The translations under genes were made by a program, and so were the position numbers. From a virus (Duplodnaviria; Heunggongvirae; Uroviricota; Caudoviricetes), in the IMG/VR virus record IMGVR_UViG_2872152978_000008: DNA of 34,309 nt; one strand, written 5' to 3'. The notes below the pieces were generated by a model. That model was given only the letters and a program-made list of their open reading frames with translations, searched no databases and had not been told where the DNA came from. Below are positions 1 to 33,644 of this stretch, one piece after another (within the stretch, counting starts at the first letter, position 1; each line of letters begins with the position of its first letter).

Positions 1-1209
1 TTACGGGGTAATGCCAACCGCTGCCGCCACTTTGTCGCCACTTGGCAGCGTTGCCAGAGGATTGAAACGGAGCGCCGTTTCCAGATGATCCGGTGCCAGA
101 TGTGCGTAACGCATAGTCATTTTTATATCGTGGTGTCCGAGAATTTTTTGTAAGGCCAGAATGTTTCCACCCGACATCATGAAGTGCGCCGCAAACGTAT
201 GGCGCAGAACGTGTGTGAGTTGACCGCGAGGGAGCACGATAGACGTTTTTTCCATCACGGATAAAAATTGAAAATAGCAGTCTGTGAAGAAATTGAACCC
301 ATCAAGCGCCATGATCTCTTCGTAAAGCTCTTTACTGATAGGGATGCTTCTGTTTTTCTTCCCCTTCGTTCTGACAAAGGTAATTCGGTATTTGGTCACC
401 TGTGAGCGGGTAAGATTTACGGCTTCACGCTAGCGTGCGCCTGTGCTTAAGCATATCTTAACTACCAGTGCCAGAATTGGGTCCTGACGTTTGCAATCAG
501 CCAGCAATTCAACAATCTGCTCATGGGTAAGCCATGCCATCTCTTTTTCTGCGATGGTGAATTTTCGCATGTTCTCCAGTGGGTTCGGATACGACCATTC
601 GCCCAGACGGGATAGTTCGCTAAAAACACTACTTAGATAGCTTTGCTCCAGGTTAATGGTGACCGGGCTTGCTCCTTTCTTCCATTTCTCGCTGAAGTAG
701 CTCTCGCCTGTCAGGCGTTTATCTCGATAGTGGGCAAACATTTTAGAGGTGAGATCGGTTGCAAGAGGATTGCCCAGAGCGTCAACCATCAACAGCAATT
801 TGTCATAGACATGCTGCCCAGCTGTCAGAGATTTACCATGTAGTTTGAACCATAGCTCAACCACGTCTTTCAGTGTTCGACGATCCACTGATTCACCCAG
901 CCAGGGCTTTGCTTCGGTTTCTTCCATCGTGTGGCGCTCAAAAGCCAGTGCTTCGCCTTTGGTGGCGAATTGTTTACGCACACGACGCCCACTTCGTCCG
1001 GCAGGGTAACATTCGCAAAGCCATTTCCCAGTGGTGAGTTTTCGTACTGCCATAAAAAATGCCCTCCAGTAGAGAGTATTTTTACTGTATGTATAACCAG
1101 TGTCAATGTATGAAATCCTACGACCATACATCTCACTGAAGCCATAATGAAGTTGGCTATTCTTTTTGCTATGTGAGCATGTAACTTTTGCGGTTAACCT
1201 GCGGCTCAT
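1..1209 (-). pseudogene. int: P2-family tyrosine integrase interrupted by an in-frame TAG at 430-432
   Basis: ORFs 430-1209 and 1-399 are in the same frame, separated only by TAG. Read-through gives LSTGAR*REAVNLTRSQV...GKKNR...HVLRHTF...MRYAHL, where P2 Int (recalled) has ARWSEAE, so TGG(W) became TAG. Catalytic R/H-x-x-R/Y residues lie downstream of the stop. Confidence 0.85.
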
Positions 1210-2391: not shown

Positions 2392-2577
2392 TTGACCATG
2401 TTTGATTACCAAGTTTCCAAACATCCATATTTTGATGAAGCCTGTCGTGCATTTGCACTGCGCCACAATCTGGTGCAACTGGCAGAACGTGCAGGCATGA
2501 ATGTGCAGATTCTGCGGAACAAGCTGAACCCAGCTCAGCCTCATTTATTAACCGCACCAGAAATCTGGCTGCTTTGA
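2392..2577 (+). pseudogene. cII: CII-like regulator truncated after ~60 aa by IS911
   Basis: [59 protein letters not shown] resembles the N-terminus of 186 CII (~169 aa, recalled). Its TGA stop is the first three bases of the IS911 left inverted repeat. Confidence 0.65.
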
Positions 2578-2646
2578 AGTGGCACACTGAATTTGGCCAC
2601 CTGAACAGAGGTGATATGCTCACCTCAGAACAACACAGGTGCTCCA

Positions 2647-3815
<1,169 letters not shown>

Positions 3816-3857
3816 CCACTTCACGCCAGAGTTTTATTTGAGATCGCAAACAGGGAG

Positions 3858-4463
3858 GTGGCTTATTACAACATAAGGCAGGAGTTTAATTACTCAACTG
3901 AAATTACTGATTTCATGAAAGCGGTATATTTCCTGTATCTCAATCGTCACGGTTACCGTGGTTTATGTCGCTATAACAAGAGCGGGCATTTCAACATTCC
4001 CTACGGCAATTATAAAAATCCGTATTTCCCTGAAAAAGAAATTCGCGCATTTGCAGAAAAAGCCCAGCGAGCAACGTTTATCTGCGCCAGCTTTGATGAA
4101 ACGCTGGCGATGTTGAAGGCGGGGGATGTGGTGTATTGCGATCCACCGTATGACGGTACGTTTTCCGGCTATCACACTGATGGTTTCACTGAAGATGACC
4201 AGTATCACCTAGCATCCGTTCTTGAACATCGGTCATCAGAAGGACATCCGGTCATTGTTTCTAACAGTGACACATCCCTGATCCGTTCGCTGTATTGCAA
4301 TTTTACTCACCACTATATCAAGGTAAAACGCAGCATCGGTGTGGCAGCTGGCGAGGGTAAATCAGCAACAGAAATCATTGCTGTTTCCGGGCCGCGCTGC
4401 TGGGTGGGATTTGATTATTCGCGTGGCGTGGATAGTTCTGCCGTGTACGGAGTACGTGCATGA
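3858..4463 (+). pseudogene. Dam-like N6-adenine DNA methyltransferase, 5'-truncated fragment
   Basis: [35 protein letters not shown]...VVYCDPPY...HTDGF aligns by eye with the C-terminal ~2/3 of E. coli Dam (DPPY motif IV). The N-terminal AdoMet-binding region is missing; the fragment begins 34 bp after the IS911 right end. Confidence 0.75.
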
Positions 4464-5984
4464 GCCATGCCGATATGAACAACTGCTGCGGCTTTAACGA
4501 GGCTGCCGCAGCGTTCTCATGGAACAGCCCGAAAAAGGCCATTAACCCTTATCTGGACCCGGCGGAAGTTGCGCCGGTTTCTGCGCTTTCAAACCTGATC
4601 ACTCTGTACGCTGCCGATAACGAGCAGGAACAGTTGCGCCGCGAGGCACTGAGTGATCAGGTCTGGGAGCGTTATTTTTTTTATGAATCACGTGATCCTG
4701 TCCAGCACGAAATGGAGCAGGATAAGCTCATTAGCCGGGCAAAGCTGGCGCATGAGCAGCAGCGTTTTAATCCGGATATGGTCATTCTGGCGGACGTCAA
4801 CGCTCAGCCTTCCCATATCAGCAAGCCGCTGATGCAACGTATTGAATACTTCAGCAGCCTGGGCAGGCCAAAGGCTTATTCCCGCTATTTACGTGAGACG
4901 ATTAAGCCATGTCTGGAACGACTGGAGCATGTACGCGACAGCCAGCTATCTGCATCTTTTCGTTTTATGGCAAGCCATGTAGGGCTGGACGGCCTGCTGA
5001 TTCTGCCTGAAATGAGTCAGGATCAGGTGAAACGCCTGTCTACCCTTGTCGCTGCGCATATGAGCATGTGCCTTGATGCAGCTTGTGGTGATTTGTATGC
5101 CACCGATGACGTTAAGCCAGAAGAAATCCGCAAGACATGGGAAAAGGTGGCAGCGGAAACCCTGCGTCTGGATGTCATCCCGCCTGCGTTTGAGCAACTC
5201 CGTCGGAAAAGAAACCGCCGTAAACCCGTGCCCTATGAACTCATTCCGGGTTCGCTGGCGCGTATGTTGTGCGCCGACTGGTGGTACCGGAAATTATGGA
5301 AAATGCGTTGCGAATGGCGGGAAGAGCAGTTGCGTGCTGTCTGCCTGGTCAGCAAAAAAGCATCTCCCTATGTCAGCTATGAAGCCGTGATGCATAAACG
5401 TGAGCAGCGCCGCAAGTCATTGGAGTTTTTCCGTTCTCATGAACTGGTGAACGAAGAGGGCGACACGCTGGATATGGAAGACGTGGTAAACGCCAGCAGC
5501 AGCAACCCGGCGCACCGCCGCAATGAGATGATGGCCTGTGTTAAAGGTCTGGAGCTTATCGCGGAAATGCGCGGTGACTGCGCCGTTTTCTACACCATTA
5601 CCTGTCCGTCACGTTTCCATTCCACGCTCAATAACGGCAGACCAAACCCAACCTGGACAAATGCGACGGTAAGACAAAGCAGCGATTATCTGGTCGGCAT
5701 GTTTGCTGCATTTCGTAAGGCGATGCACAAAGCCGGGTTGCGCTGGTATGGCGTGCGGGTGGCTGAGCCGCATCATGACGGTACAGTTCACTGGCACCTG
5801 TTGTGTTTTATGCGCAAAAAAGACCGCCGCGCCATTACTGCATTGTTGCGTAAGTTTGCCATCCGTGAAGACCGCGAGGAACTGGGTAATAACACTGGTC
5901 CACGCTTTAAATATGAGCTGATAAACCCGCGCAAAGGAACGCCGACAAGCTACATCGCGAAATACATCAGTAAGAACATTGACG
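4460..5984 (+). pseudogene. A: Replication initiation gene A (rolling-circle nickase), N-terminal part, split by IS66-family insertion
   Basis: 513-aa ORF ending ...[12 protein letters not shown] at the IS66 junction; resembles P2/186 gpA. Confidence 0.85.
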
Positions 5985-6055
5985 GTAAGCGTACAGCCTG
6001 AACCGTCTGGTCAGAATCTGACGAATTAGACAAAGTGGTGTCCACCAAATAAGTA

Positions 6056-6457
6056 GTGGGAACCAAAGTGTCAGATATGCAGAAAAATGTGAATCCCGGC
6101 AGGCGAAAAGGCTGCCCTAATTATCCTCCCGAATTTAAACAGCAGCTCGTTGCTGCCTCCTGTGAACCCGGGATATCCATCTCAAAACTTGCTCTTGAAA
6201 ATGGCATTAACGCCAATCTGTTGTTCAAATGGCGACAACAATGGCGCGAGGGAAAGCTGCTATTACCTTCTTCAGAGAGCCCCCAGCTACTTCCTGTGAC
6301 TCTCGATGCAGCTGCCGAACAGCCAGAATCGCTCGCAGAGGATCCGGAAACCCTCAGTATCAGCTGTGAGGTAACGTTCCGGCACGGGACGCTCCGCTTC
6401 AATGGCAATGTCAGCGAAAAGCTCCTGACTCTGCTGATACAGGAACTGAAGCGATGA
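6056..6457 (+). CDS. IS66-family accessory protein TnpA (orf1)
   Basis: First of three co-oriented ORFs inside the IS; true start may be the internal Met at ~6077. Confidence 0.7.
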   Translation: MGTKVSDMQKNVNPGRRKGCPNYPPEFKQQLVAASCEPGISISKLALENGINANLLFKWRQQWREGKLLLPSSESPQLLPVTLDAAAEQPESLAEDPETLSISCEVTFRHGTLRFNGNVSEKLLTLLIQELKR

Positions 6458-6801
6458 TCCCGTTACCTTCCGGGACCAAAATTTGGCTGGTTGCCGGTAT
6501 CACCGATATGAGAAATGGCTTCAACGGCCTGGCGGCAAAGGTGCAGACGACGCTGAAAGACGATCCGATGTCAGGTCACGTTTTTATCTTCCGTGGGCGT
6601 AATGGCAGTCAGGTAAAGCTCCTCTGGTCTACCGGCGATGGACTGTGTCTGCTGACCAAACGGCTGGAGCGCGGCCGCTTCGCCTGGCCGTCAGCCCGGG
6701 ATGGCAAAGTGTTCCTCACACCGGCACAGCTGGCGATGCTCCTTGAAGGTATCGACTGGCGGCAGCCTAAAAGACTGCTTACGTCCCTGACTATGTTGTA
6801 A
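6454..6801 (+). CDS. IS66-family TnpB (orf2)
   Basis: 115-aa ORF overlapping orf1 stop by 4 nt (ATGA), typical IS66 tnpB arrangement. Confidence 0.75.
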   Translation: MIPLPSGTKIWLVAGITDMRNGFNGLAAKVQTTLKDDPMSGHVFIFRGRNGSQVKLLWSTGDGLCLLTKRLERGRFAWPSARDGKVFLTPAQLAMLLEGIDWRQPKRLLTSLTML

Positions 6802-6849
6802 GCCTCTTTATCCTGGTCGACGCTGAATGAGCCTGGTAATATACCCGGT

Positions 6850-8387
6850 ATGAGCAGCTCACTTCCTGACGATATCAATGCACTGAAACGTCTCCTTGCC
6901 GAACAGGAGGCGCTGAACCGTGCCCTGCTGGAAAAGCTGAACGAGCGTGAACGCGAAATAGACCATCTGCAGGCACAGCTGGATAAGCTGCGCCGGATGA
7001 ACTTCGGCAGCCGCTCCGAAAAAGTCTCCGTCGTATCGCACAGATGGAAGCTGACCTGAAGGCACTTCAGAAAGAAAGTGATACCCTTACCGGTCGGGTT
7101 GACGACCCGGCCGTGCAGCGCCCGCTGCGTCAAACCCGCACCCGCAAACCGTTCCCCGAATCACTCCCCCGCGATGAAAAACGGCTGCTGCCGGCAGCGT
7201 CATGCTGCCCGGAATGTGGAGGCTCACTGAGCTATCCGGGTGAGGATGCCGCCGAACAGCTGGAGTTGATGCGCAGCGTCTTCCGGGTTATCCGGACTGT
7301 ACGTGAAAAGCATGCCTGTACTCAGTGCGATGCCATCGTGCAGGCCCCCGCGCCTTCACGGCCCATCGAGCGGGGTATCGCAGGACCGGGGCTGCTGGCC
7401 CGCGTGCTGATCTCAAAGTATGCAGAGCACACCCCGCTGTACCGCCAGTCTGAAATGTACGGCCGCCAGGGCGTGGAGCTGAGTCGTTCACTGCTGTCGG
7501 GCTGGGTGGATGCATGCTGCCGGCTACTGTCACCGCTGGAAGAAGCGCTTCAGGATTATGTGCTGACTGACGGTAAGCTCCATGCTGATGACACGCCTGT
7601 CCCGGTGCTGTTGCCAGGCAATAAGAAAACGAAGACCGGGCGGTTATGGACCTACGTTCGTGACGACCGTAACGCCGGGTCAACGCTGGCGCCGGCGGTG
7701 TGGTTCGCTTACAGCCCGGACAGAAAAGGCATCCATCTGCAGACCCATCTTGCGGGGTTCAGTGGTGTACTGCAGGCGGATGCATACGCCGGGTTCAACG
7801 AGCTGTACCGGGATGGCCGGATAACGGAAGCCGCCTGTTGGGCTCACGCCCGCCGTAAAATCCACGATGTGCACGTTCGCACCCCGTCAGCCCTGACGGA
7901 GGAAGCGCTGAAACGGATCGGCGAACTGTACGCCATCGAGGCAGAGATAAGGGGAATGACGGCGGAGCAGCGCCTTGCCGAACGTCAGTTGAAAACGAAA
8001 CCGCTGCTGAAATCCCTGGAAAGCTGGCTGCGTGAAAAGATGAAAACCCTGTCGCGACACTCAGAACTGGCGAAAGCGTTCGCATACGCCCTGAACCAGT
8101 GGCCGGCGCTGACGTACTATGCAGATGATGGCTGGGCTGAGGCGGACAATAATATCGCTGAAAATGCGTTGCGGATGGTCAGTCTGGGCCGCAAAAACTA
8201 CCTGTTCTTCGGTTCGGATCATGGAGGAGAGCGGGGAGCGCTGCTGTACAGCCTGATCGGGACGTGCAAACTGAACGGAGTGGAGCCAGAAAGCTACCTC
8301 CGCTATGTACTTGACGTCATAGCCGACTGGCCGATAAACCGGGTCGGCGAACTGCTCCCCTGGCGCGTAGCACTGCCGACTGAATAA
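6850..8387 (+). pseudogene. IS66-family transposase TnpC carrying a frameshift near 7027-7035
   Basis: ORF 6850-7059 (MSSSLPDDINALKRLLAEQE...) and ORF 7044-8387 overlap in different frames. Adding one base in GTCTCCGTCGT restores a continuous reading ...[18 protein letters not shown].... Confidence 0.75.
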
Positions 8388-8424
8388 CACATCCCCGTCA
8401 ATACGGTTCTTGCTGCACGCTTAC

Positions 8425-9322
8425 CATTGACGGGCGTGGTCTGGCTGGCGAGATCAGCAAGGAAACGGGTAAATCCCTGCGTGATAACGCTGAATACGTT
8501 AATCCCTGGGCGTCTCTGCATCGTGTTCAGCAATTCCGCTTCTTTGGTATTCCAGGGCGTCAGGCTTACCGTGAACTGCGGTTGTTGGCTGGTCAGGCGG
8601 CAAGGCAGCAGGGTGACAAAAAAGCAGGTGCGCCGGTACTGGATAACCCGCGCCTTGATGCCATCCTGGCTGCTGCTGATGCTGGCTGTTTTGCCACCTA
8701 CATTATGAGGCAGGGCGGCGTGCTGGTTCCTCGCAAATATCACTTGATCAGAACCGCTTATGAAATCAATGAAGAGCCGACCGCCTATGGCGATCACGGT
8801 ATTCGTATTTATGGCATCTGGTCACCCATTGCAGAAGGCAAGATCTGCACTCATGCAGTGAAGTGGAAAATGGTTCGTAAAGCCGTTGACGTTCAGGAGG
8901 CGGCAGCCGACCAGGGCGCTTGCGCCCCTTGGACTCGTGGCAATAACTGTCCCCTTGCTGAAAATTTGAACCAACAGGAGAAAGATAAATCAGCTGATGG
9001 GAACCCCAGAACGGACATTACCAGCATGGATGACAAGGAGTTGCACGATTACCTGCACAGTATGAGCAAAAAAGAGCGCCGGGAACTGGCAGCAAGGTTA
9101 CGCCTGGTGAAACCGAAACGGCGTAAAGACTACAAACAGCGAATTACAGACCATCAGCGACTGCAGCTCGTGTATGAGCTGAAGTCCAGAGGATTTGATG
9201 GCAGCGAGAAAGAGGTCGATTTACTCCTTCGCGGAGGCAGTATTCCGTCAGGAGCAGGCCTGCGTATCTTCTATCGGAACCAGCGTTTGCAGGAAGATGA
9301 TCAGTGGCGGAACCTGTATTAA
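8425..9322 (+). pseudogene. A: Replication gene A, C-terminal part
   Basis: Same reading frame as 4460-5984 once the 2448-bp insertion (IS + duplication, a multiple of 3) is removed. Frame reads [31 protein letters not shown]... continuing into ORF 8582-9322. Confidence 0.8.
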
Positions 9323-9674: not shown

Positions 9675-9908
9675 ATGCGCATTGAAATAATGATCGATAA
9701 AGAGCAGAAGATTAGCCAGTCTACCCTGGACGCTCTTGAATCCGAGCTTTACCGCAATCTGCGCCCTCTGTATCCCAAAACGGTAATTCGTATCCGCAAA
9801 GGTAGCTCTAACGGTGTGGAACTTACCGGATTGCAACTGGACGAAGAAAGAAAACAAGTGATGAAAATTATGCAGAAGGTGTGGGAAGACGACAGCTGGC
9901 TGCATTAA
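9675..9908 (+). CDS. DinI-family protein
   Basis: MRIEIMIDKEQKISQSTLDALESELYRNLRPLYPK...VWEDDSWLH resembles E. coli DinI (MRIEVTIAK...WESADDWFVSE, recalled); GAGGTG SD upstream. Confidence 0.7.
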   Translation: MRIEIMIDKEQKISQSTLDALESELYRNLRPLYPKTVIRIRKGSSNGVELTGLQLDEERKQVMKIMQKVWEDDSWLH

Positions 9909-10068: not shown

Positions 10069-10167
10069 CGTAGATCATGCAGGTGCATGAAAACCACTAC
10101 ATAAAGCGGGCAGGTAATGCTGCCAACTTACTGATTTAGTGTATGATGGTGATTTTAAGGTGCTTGC

Positions 10168-10443
10168 GTGGCTTCCATTTCCATCAGATGTCCTTCCTGC
10201 TCCGCTACTGAAGGCGTGGTGCGTAACGGCAAAAGCACTGCCGGACATCAGCGCTATCTCTGCTCTCATTGCCGTAAAACATGGCAACTACAGTTCACTT
10301 ACACCGCCTCTCAGCCCGGTACGCACCAGAAAATCATTGATATGGCCATGAATGGCGTCGGATGTCGCGCCAGTGCACGCATTATGGGCGTTGGCCTCAA
10401 CACGGTTTTACGTCACTTAAAAAACTCAGGCCGCAGTCGGTAA
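10168..10443 (+). CDS. insA: IS1 InsA
   Basis: [42 protein letters not shown]... is the canonical IS1 InsA. Confidence 0.9.
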
Positions 10444-10865
10444 CCTCGCGCATACAACCGGGCAGTGATGTGATTGTCTGCGCTGAAATGGACGAACAGT
10501 GGGGCTACGTCGGTGCTAAATCACGTCAGCGCTGGCTGTTTTACGCGTATGACAGGATACGGAGGACGGTTGTGGCGCACGTCTTCGGTGAACGCACTCT
10601 GACCACACTGGAGCGTCTTCTGAGCCTGCTGTCGGCCTTTGAGGTCGTGGTATGGATGACGGATGGCTGGCCGCTGTATGAATCACGCCTGAAGGGAAAG
10701 CTGCACGTTATCAGCAAGCGTTACACTCAGCGCATTGAGCGACATAATCTGAATCTGAGACAACATCTGGCAAGGCTGGGACGGAAGTCACTGTCGTTCT
10801 CAAAATCGGTGGAGCTGCATGACAAGGTCATCGGGCATTATCTGAACATAAAACACTATCAGTAA
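10362..10865 (+). CDS. insB: IS1 InsB (expressed as InsAB' by -1 frameshift)
   Basis: -1 frame relative to insA; canonical IS1 InsB sequence. Confidence 0.85.
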
Positions 10866-10889
10866 GTTGGAGTCATTACCAGCGGGCAG

Positions 10890-10976: not shown

Positions 10977-12626
10977 ATGTTAGTCAAGAAAAATAAAAAT
11001 TATAGTTTATATTTTTTAATTACAAATAATCAACAGATATCTGATTCTGGTAATTATATAAAAATAGTCCCATCAAGAAGCGATTGGAATGATTTTGGAT
11101 ATTTGAGTAGAGTCGAAATATCTATTTTTAATAAAAAAGAGTGTAAGGATATAATTTCACTGAATGGTTATATTGGTTTTTTGAATTCAGAGGAGGAACG
11201 AAATGGAAAAGCAGAACTGATAAGGCGAGTGAAAAAAAAGGAAGAATCTAATTTAAAGGATGAGGGGTTTAATGATTATTTTGTCATGCTTCAGGATATG
11301 AATAATTATCGAAGACTAGTAAGATTTTTTGGGGTGAATGAATCCAAATATATATTAAATTTCATTAATGATGTTGTTTCTAAGAAAAGTGACGCTAGTG
11401 CAGAGAATTTGAGGAAAAAAGCAATCTCTTCTGATATCTTTAATAAATCTTTCATTAGAGAGTCTGAGTCGTATTTTACTTTCAAAAATGCAGGAACAGT
11501 TCTTTCCGGTATTCAATATGAGGAGTTGGGTAATTTATCACAGCACATCAAGATTAGCTATTCGAATAAAGTTAATGAAGAAGATGTATCTTATGTTTTT
11601 AATTTTGATCACGAGCATGATTTACCAAAAAGAATTTCCATAATTATAGGCGAGAATGGTGTAGGAAAAAGCCAAACGCTTAGAGAAATCGCATTGGCTG
11701 CGATTAAAGGAAAGGATAATTTGGTGGCTGTAGTTGATTCTAACGGTGTGAGCATTGAAGAACGAATTCAAATTAGTAGGCTCATTGCTTTTTCTCCAAC
11801 AAATGAAAGTAAGTGTTCATTTCCAACCGATAAAAGAATAAAATCATTGATATGGTACAAAAGATTGACTTTAAATCGTGAATCAAAATCCAAATTAAAC
11901 TTGAATGATTTAATAGTGCAACTAGCGAGGAGTAACGACGCTATCGGCTATAATCAAAGGTGGAATATATTTGTTGATGCACTGAGTGTTCTAAATAGTA
12001 ACAACGATTTAGTAATCAAATGTGGCGGTGAAAATTCACCATTTGTTAAATTAAATGAGCTTAATTCTCGAGGCGAAGAATCTAGACTATCATTATATTC
12101 TGAAATTATTCTCTCTGGCGAGCCTTTGAGGCTTATTGAAAATAAATGTTACCCTTTGAGTAGTGGGGAAATATCGTTTATTAAGTTTTGTGTACAAGTC
12201 TGTTTGTATATTGAGAATGGGACTCTTCTATTAATAGATGAGCCAGAAACACATCTCCATCCTTCATTTATTAATAAATTTATGGCATTGCTTGATAATT
12301 TATTAGAAAAGACAGGCTCTTCAGCTATCATAGCAACGCATTCGGTTTATCTTGTTCGGGAGGTTTTTAAGGAGCAAGTGACAATACTCAGAAGACGAGA
12401 TGATGGGGTAATTGTTAGCGAAAAACCGAGATTGAGTACTTTTGGGGCGAATATAGGAAATATCTCATATTTTGTTTTCGGTGAGAGTGAACCAACTCAA
12501 ATTTTAAATAAAGTAAAAAACAATATAATTGCAAAGAATATGTCTTGGGATGATGTTGAATCTAAATATAGCGAGGACTTATCACTTAATGTATTAACTG
12601 CGTTGAGAAATGAAATGGGCAATTGA
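10977..12626 (+). CDS. ABC/AAA15-type ATPase with ~220-aa N-terminal extension (PtuA-like defence ATPase candidate)
   Basis: Walker A GENGVGKSQ (~aa 226), ABC signature-like LSSGE, Walker B LLLIDEPETHLHP, H-loop ATHS. GAGAGGG SD before ATG. Very AT-rich relative to the flanking prophage. Confidence 0.75.
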   Translation: MLVKKNKNYSLYFLITNNQQISDSGNYIKIVPSRSDWNDFGYLSRVEISIFNKKECKDIISLNGYIGFLNSEEERNGKAELIRRVKKKEESNLKDEGFNDYFVMLQDMNNYRRLVRFFGVNESKYILNFINDVVSKKSDASAENLRKKAISSDIFNKSFIRESESYFTFKNAGTVLSGIQYEELGNLSQHIKISYSNKVNEEDVSYVFNFDHEHDLPKRISIIIGENGVGKSQTLREIALAAIKGKDNLVAVVDSNGVSIEERIQISRLIAFSPTNESKCSFPTDKRIKSLIWYKRLTLNRESKSKLNLNDLIVQLARSNDAIGYNQRWNIFVDALSVLNSNNDLVIKCGGENSPFVKLNELNSRGEESRLSLYSEIILSGEPLRLIENKCYPLSSGEISFIKFCVQVCLYIENGTLLLIDEPETHLHPSFINKFMALLDNLLEKTGSSAIIATHSVYLVREVFKEQVTILRRRDDGVIVSEKPRLSTFGANIGNISYFVFGESEPTQILNKVKNNIIAKNMSWDDVESKYSEDLSLNVLTALRNEMGN

Positions 12627-13491
12627 AATGAATAAATTAAAAAGACCTGTTTTTAAAGATTATTCTGCATTTAAAAAACTATCTGCAAATAAGAGATTAA
12701 AACATCATTCTGTTCTGAATGGACAGGATACATTTATACTTAATGCATATAGATCGTACATAAAGAATAAAGGGTATCTTAATGTCAATTCTTGTGGCGT
12801 ATTGAGTAACAATATTGCTGAAGCTTTGAGATATTATTATAACAATCCCGCAAAGTGTTTATCTATAATTGATGATATAAGAGCAGCTAATTCTAACTCT
12901 CTATGTCCAATGTGTGGTTCAATGCATAGCGGGACTTTGGATCATGTTTTACCCAAGGAAAACTATCCAGAATTTTCTTTATTCACTAAGAATTTGGTTC
13001 CTGCTTGCAAATGTAATACTTTCAAAAGTACTACTATAGCTAATTCTGCAGGCCATCGGATGCTGCATCCATATTTTGATAATATATTAAAACAAAGATT
13101 AATATGTGCTAATTTTTCTAAATTAGGGCGAACACCTACAATTGATGTAAAAATCATAATTGACCCAATGTCACCAGAATATAACAATGTTAAGTATCAT
13201 CTTGATAATGTTGTTATCAAGAATAATATTAAGGGGTATTTGTCTGAACAATGGGAGTCGTTTTACTTATATCCTGAGCTTGTTATTAGAGGACTGAATA
13301 AGAGTCTTTCTACTTATAGCGATGTATATGAGTTGTTGACTCGCGAGTTGTTGCTGTTGGATGAAAAACATAAAGGTAAAAATAATTGGAATTCGGTTTT
13401 TGTAGCTGGGTTAATTCGACCTGATGTGATTAGGTGGATACTCTGTGAATTACATTTAGGTAACAGAAGTCCAGACGGTCGTCTCATATGA
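12610..13491 (+). CDS. HNH endonuclease (PtuB-like defence nuclease candidate)
   Basis: CPMCGSMHSGTLDHVLPKENYPEFSLFTKNLVPACKCNTFK carries the CxxC...DH...N...CxCN HNH/zinc-finger signature. Start overlaps the ATPase stop by 17 nt (alternative ATG at 12628), suggesting translational coupling. Confidence 0.75.
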   Translation: MKWAIEMNKLKRPVFKDYSAFKKLSANKRLKHHSVLNGQDTFILNAYRSYIKNKGYLNVNSCGVLSNNIAEALRYYYNNPAKCLSIIDDIRAANSNSLCPMCGSMHSGTLDHVLPKENYPEFSLFTKNLVPACKCNTFKSTTIANSAGHRMLHPYFDNILKQRLICANFSKLGRTPTIDVKIIIDPMSPEYNNVKYHLDNVVIKNNIKGYLSEQWESFYLYPELVIRGLNKSLSTYSDVYELLTRELLLLDEKHKGKNNWNSVFVAGLIRPDVIRWILCELHLGNRSPDGRLI

Positions 13492-13527: not shown

Positions 13528-13647
13528 AAATTCATAAAAACTGCTGCCTATTAATAAATTTTTTTAGCTGAGTTAAAGAACCTCATTTAGTGATTACGTT
13601 AAGTAGCTAGTTTATAACTATCAAATTTAACAATGTTCTCACTTACC

Positions 13648-14628
13648 AATTTATTTCCATCATTCTTTTTTGTAACGGTATTAACTCGTTACGTACAAAC
13701 ACCAGGCTCGCCTTCTCCACATCCCCAAACCCCCGACATTATTAGGCATAATCCCCATCATTTGCGGTGGCACACGATGCGCCGCCATCATGTCATCCCG
13801 GCTCACGTTCTTGATGTTCAGAAACTCATCCTTCGCCGCGACTTCTGACAACGGGATGATCTGAAGCCCGTCCTTTTTGCCGTTAGGCGAGTACATAAAC
13901 AGATTGCGGAAGTTACCTGGTCCTTTGGCGCTTTTCATCGCATTGCGGAGGTTGTTCACATCCTCCTGGTTTTGCGCGGCATCGGTCATGTACATGATGA
14001 AGCCTGCATGACTGCCGTTAATGTAATACTATCGGCGGAACAGCGTGGCGGACTCGTTGAGCAGGGCTGACGGAATGGCAGAAAGGTAACCTGGCAGGCC
14101 GTAGATCTCTTGGTTGATGTCCGGTTCCATCAGATGAAAGATGCTTCCTTTCGTGAACTGATACGGCTGCGTGGTCATGCCGTATTGCACAAACCAGTAG
14201 GTATCCAGGTCTAATCCGCGTCGGGTGTATTTTGCCAGAGCAGGCTCAAGAGCGATGACCTCTCCGAACCGGTTTGTGCGTTTCTCCAGGTAAGCGTTAC
14301 CAAATACCAGATAATCCTGCACAAAACGTGAAAAAGCCTGCTGGCTGAGCAGCGGGTGAGGGATGTAGGTACTGATCAGAATGTTGCATTTCACCGCAAT
14401 TGGTGAACTGTGATGCACGGCGGCGCGGAAGGTGCGCGCCAGTCCGTCAAAACTCACTGGCGGCTCATACCAGCGATCTGTCTGTACGCATTCCACATAG
14501 TCCAGTAGTTCACGGCGGTCCAGAACCGGAACGGGATCGCCGAAGCTGAATGCTTCGGCTGAAGTCTGGTTTTTATGCTGGGTCTGTTTCGTCGCCGCAG
14601 CGCGGTTCTTCTTACTCTTTCCCATCAA
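13648..14628 (-). pseudogene. Q: Portal protein gpQ with in-frame TAG (14029-14031) and a probable 1-bp deletion near 13727-13729
   Basis: ORFs 14029-14628 and 13681-13995 share a frame: ...ATLFRR*YYINGSHAGFIMYMTD.... Downstream the frame decays to GGLGMWRRRAWCLYVTS*, while adding one T restores a protein-like GGFGDVEKASLVFVRNELIPLQ... continuation to ~13648. Confidence 0.8.
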
Positions 14629-19191: not shown

Positions 19192-19638
19192 ATGAAGTTT
19201 GTTGCGCCAGAACAGGCACCGGAACAGGCGGAAATCATTAGAAATACGCCGTTCTGGCCTGATGTGGACCTGTCGGAGTTTCGCAGTGTCATGCGCACTG
19301 ACGGCACGGTGACGCAGCCGCGTTTAAAGTAGGTTGCACTGTCGGCAATTTCGGAGGTTAACGCAGAGCTGTATGAGTTTCGCAGACGCCAGCAGATGCT
19401 GGGGTATGCGTCGGAACAGCTGGACGGGAAAAGTGAGCGCATTCAGCACTATTTCAACGCGGTTTACTGCTGGGCTCGCGCCATGCTCAACGAACGTTTC
19501 CAGGACTATGACGCCACGGCATCCGGTGCGAAGCGGGGCGAAGAACTGGCGGAAGCAAGCGGTGATTTGTGGCGTGACGCCCGCTGGGCCATCAGCCGGG
19601 TGCAGGACGCGCCGCACTGCACAGTGGAGCTTATCTGA
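19192..19638 (+). pseudogene. L: Head completion protein gpL interrupted by in-frame TAG at 19330-19332
   Basis: AGGAG SD then ATG at 19192. MKFVAPEQ...TQPRLK*VALSAISEVNAELYEFRRRQQMLGYASEQ...DLWRDARWAISRVQDAPHCTVELI is continuous in one frame apart from the TAG. Confidence 0.75.
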
Positions 19639-21884: not shown

Positions 21885-22278
21885 ATTGCAGAAGGTGGAC
21901 GACTGGCTGAGTGCATTATTGGCGAATCTGGAGCCAGCCGCAAGAAGCCGCATGATGCGCCAGCTGGCGCAGGAACTGCGCCGGACACAGCAGCAGAACA
22001 TCAGGATGCAGCGCAATCCAGATGGCAGCAGTTATGAGCCGCGCAGGGTAACAGCACGCAGCAAAAAGGGGCGCATCAAACGTCAGATGTTTACAAAGCT
22101 GCGCACCACAAAATACCTGAAAACTGCAGCCAGCGCCGATTCTGCCAGCGTACAGTTTGAAGGTAGGGTGCAGCGCATTGCCCGTATTCACCATTACGGC
22201 TTGAGTGATCGCGTCAGTCGAAAAGGTATTTATACCATCTATGCGAAAAGGCAGTTATTAGGTTTTAATGTCCGGTAA
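21877..22278 (+). pseudogene. S: Tail completion protein gpS, 3'-truncated by IS1
   Basis: ORF runs into the IS1 left end and stops on a TAA inside the IS1 terminus (...RQLLGFNVR*). Confidence 0.7.
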
Positions 22279-22328
22279 TGCTGCCAACTTACTGATTTAG
22301 TGTATGATGGTGATTTTAAGGTGCTTGC

Positions 22329-22604
22329 GTGGCTTCCATTTCCATCAGATGTCCTTCCTGCTCCGCTACTGAAGGCGTGGTGCGTAACGGCAAAAGCACT
22401 GCCGGACATCAGCGCTATCTCTGCTCTCATTGCCGTAAAACATGGCAACTACAGTTCACTTACACCGCCTCTCAGCCCGGTACGCACCAGAAAATCATTG
22501 ATATGGCCATGAATGGCGTCGGATGTCGCGCCAGTGCACGCATTATGGGCGTTGGCCTCAACACGGTTTTACGTCACTTAAAAAACTCAGGCCGCAGTCG
22601 GTAA
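22329..22604 (+). CDS. insA: IS1 InsA (copy 2)
   Basis: Identical translation to copy 1 InsA. Confidence 0.9.
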
Positions 22605-23026
22605 CCTCGCGCATACAACCGGGCAGTGATGTGATTGTCTGCGCTGAAATGGACGAACAGTGGGGCTACGTCGGTGCTAAATCACGTCAGCGCTGGCTGT
22701 TTTACGCGTATGACAGGATACGGAGGACGGTTGTGGCGCACGTCTTCGGTGAACGCACTCTGGCCACACTGGAGCGTCTTCTGAGCCTGCTGTCGGCCTT
22801 TGAGGTCGTGGTATGGATGACGGATGGCTGGCCGCTGTATGAATCACGCCTGAAGGGAAAGCTGCACGTTATCAGCAAGCGTTACACTCAGCGCATTGAG
22901 CGACATAATCTGAATCTGAGACAACATCTGGCAAGGCTGGGACGGAAGTCACTGTCGTTCTCAAAATCGGTGGAGCTGCATGACAAGGTCATCGGGCATT
23001 ATCTGAACATAAAACACTATCAGTAA
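22523..23026 (+). CDS. insB: IS1 InsB (copy 2)
   Basis: As copy 1, with a T-to-A substitution (TLTTLERL to TLATLERL). Confidence 0.85.
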
Positions 23027-23036
23027 GTTGGCAGCA

Positions 23037-23519
23037 TTACCATGCAGCCCTCACAATATAGTTAAAAGCGACATTTCGTGGGCGTGTTTCATTCGCACCT
23101 GCAGGTTTAGTCGTTGCCGCAACAACACCACCCTCTGTAATAGCCGGGTTGGGAATTGGGTAATTATCGAAGTCAATGGCCGGAGACAGGGGCGTGATTT
23201 GTTTTAAAATCGTGGTGCCTGTAAAACTTTCCAGAGTCTGGTCGTTAGTTCGTGAAGTCCAGATTCCCCAATAGTGGTTATGACTGACAATCGCACCGTC
23301 CTGAAGCGTTAATAATCCCCTTCCGTTATCCACTCCACGTCCGTCATCCCAGCCACGAATAAACTCACCGCGTAAATCAGGCAATTTATTTGTCGGGTAA
23401 GCCTTTGCCAGTTCCGGGTATTCTTCAGCAGAAAAAGCCGCACCATTGCATTTCAGCCAGCCTGTCGGCGGAGTGGCTGAAGGCCACGGAACAGGCACAC
23501 CAACAGGTAATGCAGAGCC
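23037..23519 (-). pseudogene. Orphan tail-fibre variable C-terminal segment, clipped by IS1
   Basis: ...GWLKCNGAAFSAEEYPELAKAYP...NVAFNYIVRAAW is a typical tail-fibre C-terminal variable domain. It has no constant N-terminal part, lies inverted next to an invertase, and its 3' end runs into IS1. Confidence 0.6.
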
Positions 23520-23545
23520 TTCTCCCAAACCAACGTTTAAGAAAA
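23520..23545. other. Candidate 26-bp invertase crossover site (gix/cix/pix-like) TTCTCCCAAACCAACGTTTAAGAAAA
   Basis: Imperfect dyad resembling recalled Hin/Gin/Cin recombination sites, located at the 5' end of the inverted fibre segment and 55 bp upstream of the invertase gene. Confidence 0.45.
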
Positions 23546-23600: not shown

Positions 23601-24167
23601 ATGCTTATTGGCTATGTACGCGTGTCAACAAATGACCAGAACACCGATTTGCAACGTAATGCACTGAACTGCGCGGGATGTGAGCGGATTTTTGAGGATA
23701 AAATCAGTGGCACTAAGCCCGACAGACCGGGGCTTAAAAAACTGCTCAGGACACTATCGGCAGGAGACACGCTGGTTGTCTGGAAGCTGGACAGACTGGG
23801 ACGCAGTATGCGGCATCTTGTTACGCTGATAGAAGAGTTGCGCCAGCGTGGTGTGAATTTCCGAAGCCTGACTGACAGTATTGATACCAGTACCCCAATG
23901 GGCCGTTTCTTTTTTCACGTCATGGGGGCTCTGGCTGAAATGGAACGTGAACTGATAGTTGAACGTACCAGAGCAGGGCTGGCTGCAGCTCGTGCCAAAG
24001 GCAGAGTAGGTGGACTCCGTCCTAAGTTGACCACCGAACAGTGGGCACAGATTGGACGTTTACTCGAGGCCGGAGAATCAAGACAGCGTATTGCACTGAT
24101 TTTTGATGTGGGCGTTTCTACCATTTATAGAAAATTTCCGGCGAATGAGAGCAATGAATCGCCCTGA
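23601..24167 (+). CDS. Serine DNA invertase (Hin/Gin/Pin/Cin family)
   Basis: MLIGYVRVSTNDQNTDLQRNAL...GDTLVVWKLDRLGRSMRHL... is the N-terminal resolvase catalytic domain with the active-site Ser in VRVSTNDQ; C-terminal HTH. Confidence 0.85.
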   Translation: MLIGYVRVSTNDQNTDLQRNALNCAGCERIFEDKISGTKPDRPGLKKLLRTLSAGDTLVVWKLDRLGRSMRHLVTLIEELRQRGVNFRSLTDSIDTSTPMGRFFFHVMGALAEMERELIVERTRAGLAAARAKGRVGGLRPKLTTEQWAQIGRLLEAGESRQRIALIFDVGVSTIYRKFPANESNESP

Positions 24168-24309: not shown

Positions 24310-25481
24310 ATGGCTCAGGATTACCACCACGGGGTGCGCGTTGTTGAAGTCAACGAAGGCACCCGATCCATTACCACGGTGAGCACCGCCATCGTGGGTA
24401 TGGTCTGCACGGGCGATGATGCCGATGCAAAAATGTTTCCTCTTAATAAACCTGTGCTGATCACTGATGTGCTGACCGCCAGCGGTAAAGCGGGTGAGTC
24501 TGGCACGCTGGCCCGTTCGCTGGATGCCATCGCTGACCAGGCAAAACCCGTGACCGTTGTTGTGCGTGTGCCGCAGGGTGAAACGGAAGAAGAAACCACA
24601 ACCAATATCATTGGCGCAGTGACCGCCGAGGGTAAAAAAACAGGTATGAAAGCCCTGTTATCTGCCCAGTCACAGCTCGGCGTTAAACCGCGCATTCTCG
24701 GCGTGCCAGGTCACGACACGAAGGCGGTAGCTACTGAGTTGCTGAGCGTGGCGCAAAGCCTGCGTGGATTTGCTTACCTGTCAGCGTATGGTTGCAAGAC
24801 GGTGCAGGAAGCAATCACTTACCGTGAAAACTTCAGTCAGCGTGAAGGAATGCTGATCTGGCCCGACTTTACTGGCTGGGACACGGTGCTGAATGCCGAA
24901 GCAACGGCTTATGCCACCGCCCGTGCGCTCGGTCTGCGCGCTAAAATTGATGAGCAGACCGGATGGCACAAAAGCCTGTCCAACGTGGGCGTGAACGGTG
25001 TCACCGGAATTTCTGCTGATGTGTTCTGGGATCTGCAGAACCCGGCAACCGATGCAGGTCTGCTTAACCAGAACGATATCACCACGCTTATCCGCAAAGA
25101 CGGTTTCCGCTTCTGGGTTCCCGCTGTCTGAGCGATGATCCGCTCTTTGCCTTCGAAAACTACACCCGCACGGCGCAGGTGCTGATGGACACGATGGCAG
25201 AAGCGCACATGTGGGCGGTGGACAAACCGCTGAACCCGTCGCTGGCCCGCGACATTATCGAAGGTATCCGCGCCAAAATGCGTAGCCTGGTCAGTCAGGG
25301 CTATCTCATTGGTGGTGATTGCTGGCTGGACGAGTCGGTGAACGATAAAGACACGCTGAAAGCCGGGAAACTCACCATCGATTACGACTACACGCCAGTG
25401 CCGCCACTTGAAAACCTGATGCTGCGTCAGCGCATCACCGATCAGTACCTGGTGAATTTCTCCAGCCAGGTCAGCGCGTAA
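24310..25481 (+). pseudogene. FI: Tail sheath protein FI with a -1 frameshift in the G-run at 25115-25117
   Basis: ORF 24310-25131 ends ...[10 protein letters not shown]. Inserting one G restores ...[35 protein letters not shown]..., which joins ORF 25179-25481. Confidence 0.85.
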
Positions 25482-26489: not shown

Positions 26490-29400
26490 ATGAGTGACAA
26501 TAACCTGCGTCTGCAGGTGATTCTTAATGCGGTTGACAAACTCACCCGCCCATTTCGATCCGCGCAGGCCAGTTCAAGAGAACTGGCTGCTGCTGTCAAA
26601 AAATCCCGCGATGCAATAAAGCAGCTTGATCAGGCCGGGAGCAGTCTGGACAGCTTCCGAAAGCTGCAGGCAGAAAATCAGAAATTAGGCGACAGGCTGA
26701 ACTATGCCCGCCAGCGTGCAAATTTGCTCAGTCAGGAACTGGGAGCGATGGGGCCGCCTTCGCAACGTCAGGTTGTTGCTCTGGGCCGTCAACGGCTGGC
26801 TGTTCAGCGCCTGGAAGAACGCCAGAAAAAGCTGCAGCAGCAGACGGCGCTTGTGCGTGCAGAACTTTATCGTGCTGGTATTTCAGCTAATGATGGCGCC
26901 AGTGCGACGGCCCGCATTACCCGTGAAACGATGCGTTATAACAGGCAGCTTTCTGAGCAGGAAGCGAGGTTACGACGTGTCGGGGAGCAACAGCGAAAAA
27001 TGCACGCCGCCCGGGGGCTTACGCCAGGCGTCTTGAGGTAAGGGATCGTATTGCAGGTGCCGGAGCCACCACCACGGCTGCAGGGCTGGCAATGGGCGCA
27101 CCAGTGATGGCGGCAGTAAAAAGCTATACCAGCATGGAAGATGCCATGAAAGGTGTGGCAAAGCAGGTCAATGGTCTGCGTGACGATAATGGCAACCGCA
27201 CTGCGCGTTTTTACGAAATGCAGGGTGCCATCAAGGCTGCCAGCGAACAGTTGCCGATGGAAAACGGTGCTGTGGACTTCGCCGCACTGGTTGAAGGTGG
27301 TGCGCGCATGAACGTCGCAAACCCTGACGACAGCTGGGAAGACCAGAAACGTGACCTGCTGGCCTTCGCCAGCACGGCGGCAAAGGCGGCAACAGCCTTT
27401 GAACTGCCAGCGGATGAACTGTCAGAAAGTCTGGGGAAAATCGCCCAGCTCTACAAAATCCCTACCCGCAATATTGAGCAGCTCGGTGATGCGCTGAACT
27501 ATCTGGATGATAACGCCATGTCGAAAGGGGCGGACATCATTGATGTCATGCAACGCCTGGGCGGTGTGGCTGACCGTCTGGATTATCGTAAAGCGGCGGC
27601 GCTGGGTTCCACCTTCCTGACACTCGGCGCTGCGCCTGAGGTTGCAGCCAGTGCAGCAAACGCGATGGTGCGTGAATTGTCCATTGCCACCATGCAAAGC
27701 AAGAGTTTCTTTGAAGGGATGAATCTGCTGAAACTCAATCCAGAAGTGATTGAAAAGCAGATGACGAAGGATGCGATGGGAACTATCCAGCGGGTGCTGG
27801 AGAAGGTGAATGCGCTGCCACAGGATAAGCGCCTGTCTGCCATGACCATGTTGTTTGGTAAAGAGTTTGGCGATGACGCAGCGAAACTGGCAAACAACCT
27901 GCCGGAACTTCAGCGCCAGTTAAAACTGACTGCGGGCAATGATGCGCTCGGTTCCATGCAGAAAGAATCCGACATCAACAAGGATTCACTTTCTGCTCAG
28001 TGGTTGCTGGTCAAAACCGGAGCACAGAACACCTTCAGCAGCCTGGGGGAAACGCTGCGCCAGCCGCTGATGGATATTCTGTACACGGTGAAAAGCGTCA
28101 CGGGGGCGTTGCGTCGCTGGGTGGAAGCTAACCCGGAACTGACGGGCACTCTGATGAAAGTAGCCGCTGTGGTAGCTGCCGTTACCGTGGGCCTCGGCAC
28201 CTTAGCGGTGGCGCTGGCTGCAGTGCTGGGGCCGCTGGCAGTCATCCGTCTGGGATTCTCTGTGCTGGGTATCAAAACGTTACCTTCCGTTACGGCAGCA
28301 GTAACCCGAACCAGCAACGCGTTGTCCTGGCTGGCTGGCGCACCACTGGCACTGCTGCGACGCGGGCTTGCTTCATCGGGCAACGCTGCAGGTTTACTTA
28401 CTGCGCCGTTGTCGTCTTTGCGCCGCACGGCATCACTGACGGGAAATGTCCTGAAAACTGTAGCAGGTGCGCCGGTTGCACTTTTGCGGTCTGGATTATC
28501 CGGTTTACGTGCGGTTGCTGTGATGTTTATGAATCCACTGGCGGTACTACGCGGCGGACTGGCTGCCACAGGCACGGTGCTGCGTATGCTCGCATCCGGT
28601 CCACTGGCGATGCTGCGCGTTGCCCTGTATGCCGTCTCTGGTCTGTTAGGTGCTCTGCTCAGTCTGATAGGTCTTGTGGTTACTGCACTGGCGGGTGTGG
28701 CGCTGGTTGTCTGGAAATACTGGCAGCCCATCACCACATTTCTCGGTGGCGTGGTGGAAGGATTCAAAGCGGCGGCAGGTCCTGTCAGTGCCGCGTTCGA
28801 ACCGCTTAAGCCTGTGTTCCAGTGGATTGGCGACAAAGTACAGGCGCTGTGGGGCTGGTTTACTGATCTGCTGACGCCCGTTAAGTCGACCTCTGCCGAA
28901 CTGCAGAGTGCAGCGGCAATGGGGCGACGATTCGGGGAGGCTCTGGCGGAAGGGCTGAATATGGTCATGCATCCGCTGGACTCCCTGAAATCCGGCGTTT
29001 CCTGGTTGCTGGAGAAACTTGGCATTGTCAGTAAAGAGGCCGCAAAGGCGAAACTGCCGGAAAGCGTGACGCGTCAGCAACCTGCGACGGTGAATGCAGA
29101 CGGTAAAGTGATGATGCCATCGGGTGGTTTTCCGTCATGGGGATATGGCTTTGCGGGGATGTATGACAGCGGCGGGTATATCCCGCGCGGGCAGTTTGGC
29201 ATCGTCGGTGAAAACGGGCCGGAAATTGTTAACGGCCCGGCAAATGTGACCAGCCGGAGAAATACAGCTGCACTGGCTGCCGTTGTTGCCGGAATGATGG
29301 GTGTTGCTGCTACGCCAGCAGAGCTTCCACCGTTGCACCCTTTGGCACTTCCCGCGAAAGGCGGTGAAGCGATGGTGAGTCGTGCAGCCACTGTGCCGCC

Positions 29401-29566
29401 CGTTCAACGGATTGAGGCACCGATGCAGATCATCATTCAAACGCAGCCAGGACAAAGTGCGCAGGATATTGCGCGGGAGGTGGCCCGCCAGCTTGATGAA
29501 CGTGAACGCAGGCTGAAGGCAAAAGCCAGGAGTAACTACAGCGATCAGGGGGGATACGACGCATGA
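26490..29566 (+). pseudogene. T: Tape measure protein gpT with a frameshift in the G-run at 27013-27017
   Basis: ORF 26490-27041 and ORF 27092-29566 are in different frames. Adding one G gives ...AARGAYARRLEVRDRIAGAGATTTAAGLAMGAPVMAAVK..., continuous. Ala/Leu-rich repetitive C-terminal part typical of tape measure. Confidence 0.8.
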
Positions 29567-31235: not shown

Positions 31236-31454
31236 ATGATGATTTGCCCACTGTGTGGAAGTGCCGCCCATACTCGCAGCAGTTTTCAGGTATCTTCATT
31301 GACCAAAGAGCGTTACAACCAGTGCCAGAACATTAACTGCAGCCATACTTTTGTTACCCATGAAACTTTTGTTCGTTCGATTGCAACGCCAAAAGAGTCA
31401 AATCCGGTTCAGCCGCATCCAATGAAATCAGGACAGGTGGCGCTCTCTCTTTGA
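31236..31454 (+). CDS. ogr: Ogr/Delta-family zinc-finger late-gene activator
   Basis: MMICPLCGSAAHTRSS...KERYNQCQNINCSHTF... carries the Cys4 pattern of P2 Ogr (recalled MFHCPLCQHAAHARTS...KERYHQCQNVNCSATF). Confidence 0.8.
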   Translation: MMICPLCGSAAHTRSSFQVSSLTKERYNQCQNINCSHTFVTHETFVRSIATPKESNPVQPHPMKSGQVALSL

Positions 31455-31534
31455 CGCTGCCGCCATTTTGTCGCCATCGTTAAAAAACAGTGCTTCTAAC
31501 ATCATGATTTTAAAAGGCATAAATTTCAGACAAC

Positions 31535-31577
31535 AAAAAACCCATCAACCTTGAACCGAAATGGCGGGGTTGATGGG
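31535..31577 (-). terminator. Candidate rho-independent terminator downstream of ybjL
   Basis: Perfect 10-bp stem CCCATCAACC/GGTTGATGGG with a 17-nt loop, followed on the minus strand by U6. Confidence 0.45.
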
Positions 31578-31689
31578 CTCCACAAAATGGGGACATCAAA
31601 GAAAAGCAGTGGCACTAATTAAGACTGATGCCCTGCGGAAAAGTTCTGCGGTTGTGCAAAAAAATTTCATTTTCAGGGCAACTTCAGTT

Positions 31690-33375: not shown

Positions 33376-33644
33376 GGAGGCTAACTTCTTGTTTACTAGT
33401 AAGCTGTTGAAAGAAATGGTAATTTACGATAATGTTTTTTACCAGAATTCAGGGCGCAGATTCATTCAGCGCACCTAAACGATAGTAAAGTAACAATGTA
33501 TTTTACTAGTGTAATCACATTAGGTATCAACGGCTATATGAATTGCGTTGGCCTATATTAGCATGGAATGCGAAGCGGCTTTATCTTACTGAACGCCACA
33601 CTGGCGAAAAATGTGTTCGATAGACGCAGTGTCAGGAGGAACGA

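Follow-up and report, generated by a model that had tools for sequence, protein, structure and literature searches.

Replication gene A (gpA) of a P2/186-like prophage in a Shigella dysenteriae lineage is interrupted by an insertion sequence which, judged by its nucleotide sequence, belongs to ISEc22 of the IS66 family. The 2440-bp element occupies 5985-8424 of the window (the whole stretch of DNA that was analysed, 34,309 nucleotides) and is bordered by identical copies of the octamer CATTGACG at 5977-5984 and 8425-8432. Taken as a whole, we are highly confident that these features are best explained by a single transposition of ISEc22 into gpA, followed by fixation of the insertion in a lineage and by later decay of its transposase gene, tnpC. 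The insertion is real, had been correctly read, and is of an ordinary and already known kind; no result contradicted it. The features on which the argument depends are as follows.

2575-3824: IS911; no target duplication, deletions at its flanks
4460-5984, + strand: gene A 5' part, codons 1-508 and the first base of codon 509
5977-5984: left copy of the 8-bp target duplication, CATTGACG; single in the SF-468 empty site
5985-8424, + strand: ISEc22 (IS66 family), 2440 bp; other copies are 2441 bp
5985-6006, + strand: left terminal inverted repeat, GTAAGCGTACAGCCTGAACCGT; 19/22 against the reverse complement of the right end
6077-6457, + strand: tnpA, 126 aa according to public-record gene calls; PF01527 HTH_Tnp_1, E=1.8e-12
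6454-6801, + strand: tnpB, IS66 accessory protein, 115 aa, intact; PF05717 TnpB_IS66, E=1.6e-38
6850-7059, + strand: tnpC 5' fragment, 69 aa; frame lost at a 1-bp deletion, 7027/7028
7044-8387, + strand: tnpC 3' fragment, 447-aa ORF; zf-IS66, DDE_Tnp_IS66 and IS66 C-terminal domains
8403-8424, - strand: right terminal inverted repeat, reverse complement GTAAGCGTGCAGCAAGAACCGT
8425-8432: right copy of the 8-bp target duplication, CATTGACG; single in the SF-468 empty site
8433-9322, + strand: gene A 3' part, last two bases of codon 509 to codon 804 and stop; no internal stop
22274-23041: IS1; no target duplication, deletions at its flanks

Gene A and the insertion site

As it stands, the gene A ORF runs to 6001, with a 513-aa product whose last residues are ...KNIDGKRTA*; only in silico removal of the insertion makes the gene continuous. 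A sequence-only reading of this DNA had described an IS66-family element with a perfect 8-bp duplication, after which the A frame resumes 2448 bp further on, and each part of that description held. Removal of 5985-8432 (2448 bp, 816 codons), which that reading had proposed as a check, joins 4460-5984 to 8433-9322 in a single 804-aa ORF; it shares 793 of 804 residues, with no gaps, with the replication endonuclease of the E. coli SF-468 prophage, which is intact and also 804 aa long. The SF-468 gene represents the empty site, having one CATTGACG exactly at the junction, while the flanking 8-mers were found identical when inspected again. Gene order (dam-A-DinI-like) is also the same as in the intact SF-468 prophage.

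The octamer is present in two copies on the forward strand of the 34.3-kb window, each adjoining one end of the element and with no others, where chance alone would give approximately 0.5 per strand (34309/65536). The match does not extend leftward, and rightward one extra base (G) agrees. Two further ISEc22 copies likewise have 8-bp duplications (AATCAACC and GATAATTC), and 8 bp is the length of the IS66 target duplication (PMC6778807); no additional ISEc22 copy was found within the window. From this footprint, consisting of the target duplication and the empty site, a past transposition may be read. A single ISEc22 would have entered codon 509 of gene A, which encodes an HUH rolling-circle replication endonuclease; the transposase would have cut CATTGACG with the 8-bp stagger usual for the family, and gap repair would have left the octamer at both sides. 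No rearrangement would have come after it, so that the halves of gpA are still contiguous except for the IS, and the interrupted gene would give at most a 513-aa product.

An IS could also come to lie between the gpA halves through recombination of two IS copies, or through a repeat mis-joined in assembly, and IS-mediated rearrangements are abundant in Shigella genomes; IS911 and IS1, in this same window, have no target duplications, and deletions border both of them. Against such an origin, one and the same octamer stands on either side of the element, the two flanks adjoin precisely in the SF-468 empty site, and the junction is repeated on 15 contigs of independent assemblies. We give this origin practically no chance of being correct, and the empty site and the gapless 804-aa joined ORF refute it.

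Over its 5' part, gene A is 99.7% identical in nucleotide sequence to genes that carry the annotation 'replication endonuclease' in E. coli, and PF05840 Phage_GPA matches residues 188-510 of the joined protein (E=1e-127, 426 bits), which at 804 aa is longer than the A protein of P2 (761 aa). Both the HUH motif (H444-W-H446) and the paired tyrosines (Y498/Y502, YxxxY) lie upstream of the insertion; an HUH motif and a tyrosine pair in YxxxY spacing are described for P2 A (PMC3986222). Gene A therefore has PF05840, HUH and YxxxY tyrosines in common with P2/186-family replication protein A, and differs in being interrupted after codon 508. In the truncated product the Pfam GPA domain is complete, both catalytic motifs are present and the C-terminal 295 residues are missing; because these are gone, GpA function is presumed to be lost, and the prophage would be unable to start its own replication. 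The earlier view that the insertion inactivated the initiator is thus presumptive, given the domain and motifs that are kept. A search allowing up to three mismatches found no match to GCGCCTCGGAGTCCTGTCAA, a tentative version of the P2 ori nick-site oligonucleotide that may be wrong.

Identity of the element

Three consecutive ORFs are found on the + strand, namely tnpA (HTH), tnpB (IS66 Orf2-like) and tnpC (DDE_Tnp_IS66), and the tnpA stop overlaps the tnpB start in an ATGA at 6454-6457 (translational coupling). The element ends, GTAAGCGTACAGCCTGAACCGT and GTAAGCGTGCAGCAAGAACCGT, are imperfect inverted repeats that agree at 19 of 22 positions, and GTAAGCGT starts both of them, giving termini of the GTAAGCG type. 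Ends beginning 5'-GTAAGCG are the signature of the IS66 family as it is known from ISfinder, and that start is said to have been given as the family's end signature by Han and colleagues in 2001. Full-length comparison (2440/2441 bp) gave 99.6% nucleotide identity to E. coli copies annotated ISEc22, where the annotation is the PGAP label 'IS66-like element ISEc22 family transposase' and not the ISfinder type sequence; identity to Shigella plasmid copies (pINV-type) was 99.8%, again over the full length. With ISEc22 as annotated by NCBI PGAP on E. coli and Shigella chromosomes and plasmids, the element shares its tnpA-tnpB-tnpC order, ends, length class and 8-bp target duplication, and the assignment of the family by the earlier reading can accordingly be narrowed to ISEc22. 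IS66 and IS679 are the prototypes of the family (Machida 1984; Han et al. 2001; both as cited in PMC6778807), and here too three ORFs, the ATGA overlap of tnpA and tnpB, a DDE TnpC, GTAAGCG-type termini and the 8-bp duplication are shared, although ISEc22 is a different isoform.

The tnpC frameshift and mobility

The tnpC gene had been described as frameshifted, and this is so: GTCTCC-GTCGT (CC) stands here in place of GTCTCCCGTCGT (CCC) in every other copy compared, splitting tnpC into pieces of 69 aa and 447 aa, the second of which retains PF03050 (E=1.6e-106) together with PF13005 and PF13817. An intact DDE transposase is therefore missing, which bears on autonomy and not on membership of the IS66 family; all three ORFs are reportedly required, according to the 2001 work of Han and colleagues. 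When one C is put back in silico, a 512-aa TnpC results with a single private substitution, P297L. There are three private C-to-T substitutions in this tnpC (7556, 7738 and 8153), of which one is non-synonymous.

The suggested search for copies with intact tnpC found one in the same strain, a 2441-bp ISEc22 on plasmid CP026841.1, from which the present copy differs by the 1-bp deletion and four substitutions. Both IS ends here are identical to those of the plasmid copy. The earlier suggestion that the IS may now be immobile is consequently sound as far as the split tnpC goes and too strong in its wording, because the ends match those of an intact copy that is a potential source of TnpC in trans. 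This ISEc22 is probably at most non-autonomous, and the plasmid copy could in principle supply TnpC to it. In the sequence of events that we favour, the three C-to-T changes and the deletion would have arisen later, in the ATCC 9753 sequence only, producing a non-autonomous copy with intact ends that TnpC from another copy could in principle use.

Only one assembly has the frameshift, and the missing base belongs to a homopolymer; an assembly error is therefore possible. On this account the insertion is real, the missing base is a homopolymer undercall in CP026840.1, a long-read-style sequence, and the IS is actually intact and autonomous. The 447-aa product is recorded in CP026840.1 only; at the orthologous gpA insertion, two other assemblies show the C at 7027 and encode an intact 512-aa TnpC; and over the 16 kb compared there is just one more private 1-bp indel, likewise a shortened run, C6 to C5 at 13729. 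On the other hand, three private C-to-T changes in the same copy do not look like typical consensus errors and speak for true divergence of this copy, and both 1-bp deletions lie in dead-prophage sequence free of selection, where genuine indels are expected. We consider an artefact a serious possibility, although the less likely one, and the frameshift may serve as an assembly-quality flag for CP026840.1.

Should the deletion be genuine, a near-full-length transposase might still be made by -1 ribosomal slippage on GAA AAA G (7018-7024), upstream of the deletion; the downstream frame is indeed -1 and open from 6987, and the two frames overlap over the A5 run. This is very improbable, as TnpC lies in one frame in all other copies compared and the run, read in the zero frame, does not form the canonical X XXY YYZ heptamer. 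Programmed frameshifting as the designed state of tnpC was rejected, all the other copies being single-frame.

Distribution of the insertion and decay of the prophage

Over 16 kb, the window matches Shigella dysenteriae ATCC 9753 (CP026840.1) at 100% identity, the strain name being given by the partner plasmid record. Exact matches to the 513-aa junction product place the gpA::IS junction on 15 contigs of several assemblies, among them long contigs from GCA_002968215.1 and GCA_002968235.1 as well as some short-read contigs that cross the left junction, and the insertion therefore predates their divergence. It is thus old enough to be common to a lineage, for which it could be a marker; the description of a simple, 'relatively recent' transposition is right in the first adjective and applies only loosely in the second. 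A 200-bp left-junction probe was covered at 80% or more by no record among 5,426 complete E. coli genomes and a phage collection, from which the insertion is therefore absent, and the exact 38-mer junction had no match in GTDB species-representative genomes.

The prophage adjoins ybjL and carries at least eight lesions, gpA included. The integrase has a nonsense codon, there is an IS911-associated deletion and there are two IS1 copies; baseplate genes are lost, the portal, sheath and tape-measure genes are broken, and early genes have also gone. Because at least seven other lesions exist, the ISEc22 insertion is not what killed the prophage, and it would have become fixed in a prophage with many other losses. 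The N-terminal 509 GpA residues are identical on 15 of 15 contigs, the two nucleotide differences between strains being synonymous. It is conceivable, at very long odds, that the GpA fragment is retained as a functional truncated nickase, or that the insertion helped to lock an immobile prophage in place and so lets the host keep its intact PDC-M01-type cargo genes; in either case the event would count as a step of domestication rather than as decay alone.

Under the favoured explanation, a single transposition, the insertion has little import beyond annotation, and the proper label is a gpA pseudogene interrupted by ISEc22 in a defective P2/186-like prophage of Shigella dysenteriae ATCC 9753. 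IS-driven pseudogenisation in Shigella, as described by Hawkey et al. 2020 (PMC7373316), is matched by the two IS1 copies, IS911 and the IS66-family element within this 34-kb region; in that study the IS66-family element of S. dysenteriae Sd197 is ISEc8, not ISEc22, and neither the locus nor the strain of the present insertion is mentioned. The case illustrates cleanly how a simple insertion of an IS66-family element leaves its 8-bp footprint. The footprints of IS911 and IS1 in the window have been lost via adjacent deletions, unlike that of ISEc22.

Insertion of an IS element in gene A

Two copies of the octamer CATTGACG (5977-5984 and 8425-8432) enclose an IS element of 2440 bp (5985-8424) within gpA, the replication gene A of a P2/186-like prophage; they are the only forward-strand copies in the window, and chance expectation is ~0.5 per strand (by arithmetic). 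The left junction reads ...AAGAACATTGACG / GTAAGCGTACAGCC... and the right ...GCACGCTTAC / CATTGACGGGCGTGG..., and the terminal inverted repeats, which start GTAAGCGT, match at 19 of 22 positions. As reference for the empty site we used E. coli SF-468, where the gene is uninterrupted; there both flanks of the element meet at one single CATTGACG, so that the perfect 8-bp duplication and the simple transposition described in the sequence-only reading are borne out. In silico removal of 5985-8432 (2448 bp), as that reading had proposed, yields a single continuous ORF from 4460 to 9322, whose 804-aa product is identical to the SF-468 protein at 793 of 804 residues, gapless and equal in length.

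The interrupted gene is a gene A of the usual P2/186 type. In about 1,270 complete E. coli genomes, genes annotated 'replication endonuclease' share 99.7% identity with the 5' flank, and the joined protein matches Pfam Phage_GPA (E=1e-127; residues 188-510) and carries the same HUH motif (H444/H446) and paired tyrosines (Y498/Y502) as described for P2 protein A (PMC3986222). The insertion point follows the first base of codon 509, and the interrupted ORF (4460-6001) ends in KRTA after 509 native residues. Because this truncated product retains the entire Pfam domain and both catalytic motifs, inactivation of the initiator, which had been asserted outright, may only reasonably be inferred from the loss of the C-terminal 295 residues.

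The target duplication includes ATTGACG, and its reverse complement, CGTCAAT, occurs 22 bp in from the right IS end; the two form a 7-bp inverted repeat (8396-8402 versus 8426-8432) around the right terminal repeat. Nothing like this pairing occurs at two other ISEc22 sites examined, AATCAACC and GATAATTC, so the repeat is probably due to chance.

Identity, distribution and autonomy of the element

Genes of the element
6077-6457, tnpA, with an HTH_Tnp_1 domain
6454-6801, tnpB, with a TnpB_IS66 domain; its start overlaps the tnpA stop in ATGA
tnpC, with zf-IS66, DDE_Tnp_IS66 and IS66 C-terminal domains

Assignment to the IS66 family agrees with these domains and with megablast comparison, in which the element is 99.6% identical over its full length to E. 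coli copies labelled 'IS66-like element ISEc22 family' by PGAP, and 99.8% identical to plasmid copies of Shigella dysenteriae and S. boydii. The two other ISEc22 copies examined measure 2441 bp each and have 8-bp duplications, the size found here and reported for IS66 (PMC6778807). Full-length near-identity and the duplications of other copies mark the element as an ordinary representative of an IS already known, ISEc22. As far as they are testable, all structural features of the family are present except an intact transposase, a defect which bears on autonomy and not on family membership.

The insertion is real and common to a lineage. An exact look-up found the 513-aa junction protein on 15 contigs. 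Over 16 kb the window matches CP026840.1 at 100% identity, and the record of the partner plasmid in that assembly, CP026841.1, names Shigella dysenteriae strain ATCC 9753. Both junctions recur in long contigs from GCA_002968215.1 and GCA_002968235.1, and the left junction is crossed by short contigs of other assemblies and by one SRA run. The same junctions in several assemblies rule out an assembly artefact, and 'relatively recent' must be qualified, the insertion being shared by a lineage. Two 12-bp indels (1392/1393; 9681-9692) and one of 4 bp (13648) distinguish ATCC 9753 from L004 and L005, loci of related assemblies with the orthologous insertion; the indel at 9681-9692 falls at the beginning of the DinI-like gene, whose called product has 77 aa in ATCC 9753 and 73 aa in L004 and L005.

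The frameshift in tnpC was correctly recognized: one C is absent from GTCTCCCGTCGT at 7027/7028 relative to every ISEc22 copy compared, and putting it back in silico gives a 512-aa TnpC that differs from the same strain's plasmid copy at one residue (P297L). The -1 frame opens at 6987, so that both tnpC fragments extend over a GAA AAA G run; programmed frameshifting was rejected because all other copies encode TnpC in one frame. Since the orthologous elements of GCA_002968215.1 and GCA_002968235.1 retain the C at 7027 and encode an intact TnpC of 512 aa, and the only record of the 447-aa frameshift product is CP026840.1, the lesion is either a post-insertion change in ATCC 9753 or a homopolymer miscall. 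Such an assembly artefact is a real possibility, though less likely than not; in its favour, another private 1-bp indel occurs just once in the compared 16 kb, at 13729, and it too is a deletion in a C-run. Besides the frameshift, the ATCC 9753 copy has a further three private C-to-T changes in tnpC.

A 2441-bp ISEc22 whose TnpC is intact lies on the strain's own plasmid, CP026841.1, and its two ends match those in the window exactly. The chromosomal copy is for this reason at most non-autonomous, and its suggested immobility needs that caveat.

Decay of the prophage

The intact prophage of SF-468, also located between rcdA and ybjL, served as reference for the survey of lesions in the window.

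Lesions and IS elements besides ISEc22
1-1053, minus strand, integrase, nonsense codon at position 208 of 350 (stop at 430-432)
2575-3824, IS911, 1250 bp, full-length, 100% identical to Shigella plasmid copies
dam remnant, stop codon inside the remaining fragment
10113-10880, second IS1, 768 bp, duplication AGCGGGCA, between the DinI-like gene and cargo genes
13646-14625, portal gene, internal stop and frameshift; C5 versus C6 at 13729, private to the ATCC 9753 assembly
19192-19635, gpL, internal stop codon
22274-23041, IS1 without target duplication, flanks 22267-23534
24310-25478, sheath gene, frameshifted near 25104-25116
26490-29566, tape-measure gene, apparently split into 183-aa and 824-aa ORFs, N-terminal part divergent

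Related assemblies share the integrase nonsense codon and have the gene called in two parts, of 207 aa and 103 aa; the prophage is probably unable to excise. Between cII codon 60 and dam codon 57, IS911 stands in place of ~1.8 kb of early-operon DNA, and the genes missing are fil, a traR-like gene and those for DUF5347 and DUF2732; the flanks of IS911 (..GCTGCTT / CGCCAGAG..) lack a target duplication, which suggests an adjacent deletion. The IS1 at 22274-23041 occupies the place of the gpS sequence starting with codon 130, of gpV, W, J and I, and of most of the tail-fibre gene H. Next to an intact invertase-like recombinase (23601-24164) lies a leftover of the H C-terminus in inverted orientation (23043-23534, minus).

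Among the three older elements (ISEc22, IS911 and this IS1), ISEc22 alone has kept its duplication, which fits a simple insertion. The IS1 at 10113-10880 is found only in ATCC 9753 and, being absent from the otherwise orthologous L004 and L005, is strain-specific and younger than the ISEc22 insertion. The lesions follow the same pattern as the IS-driven decay described in Shigella (PMC7373316). It was not the ISEc22 insertion that killed the prophage. The event is a textbook insertional inactivation within a defective prophage of a public annotated genome, with nothing new in kind; the original observation is confirmed, and its interpretation supported with caveats on recency, sole causality and 'immobility'.

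Cargo genes and chromosomal site

An intact two-gene cargo (10977-12626 and 12610-13491) is located between the DinI-like gene and what remains of the portal gene, and encodes a 549-aa AAA_15/AAA_21 ATPase and a 293-aa partner. The top PADLOC hits are PDC-M01A (E=3e-55) and PDC-M01B (E=1e-33), and the pair is a candidate defence system; in a prophage that is decaying elsewhere, no other accessory part seems as well preserved.

Right end of the window (31236-34022)
31236-31451, ogr-like gene, intact
31690-33375, minus strand, ybjL, host chromosome
33645-34022, plus strand, ybjM, host chromosome

This passage from the ogr-like gene into ybjL and ybjM shows that the prophage occupies the rcdA/ybjL site, as the intact SF-468 prophage does.
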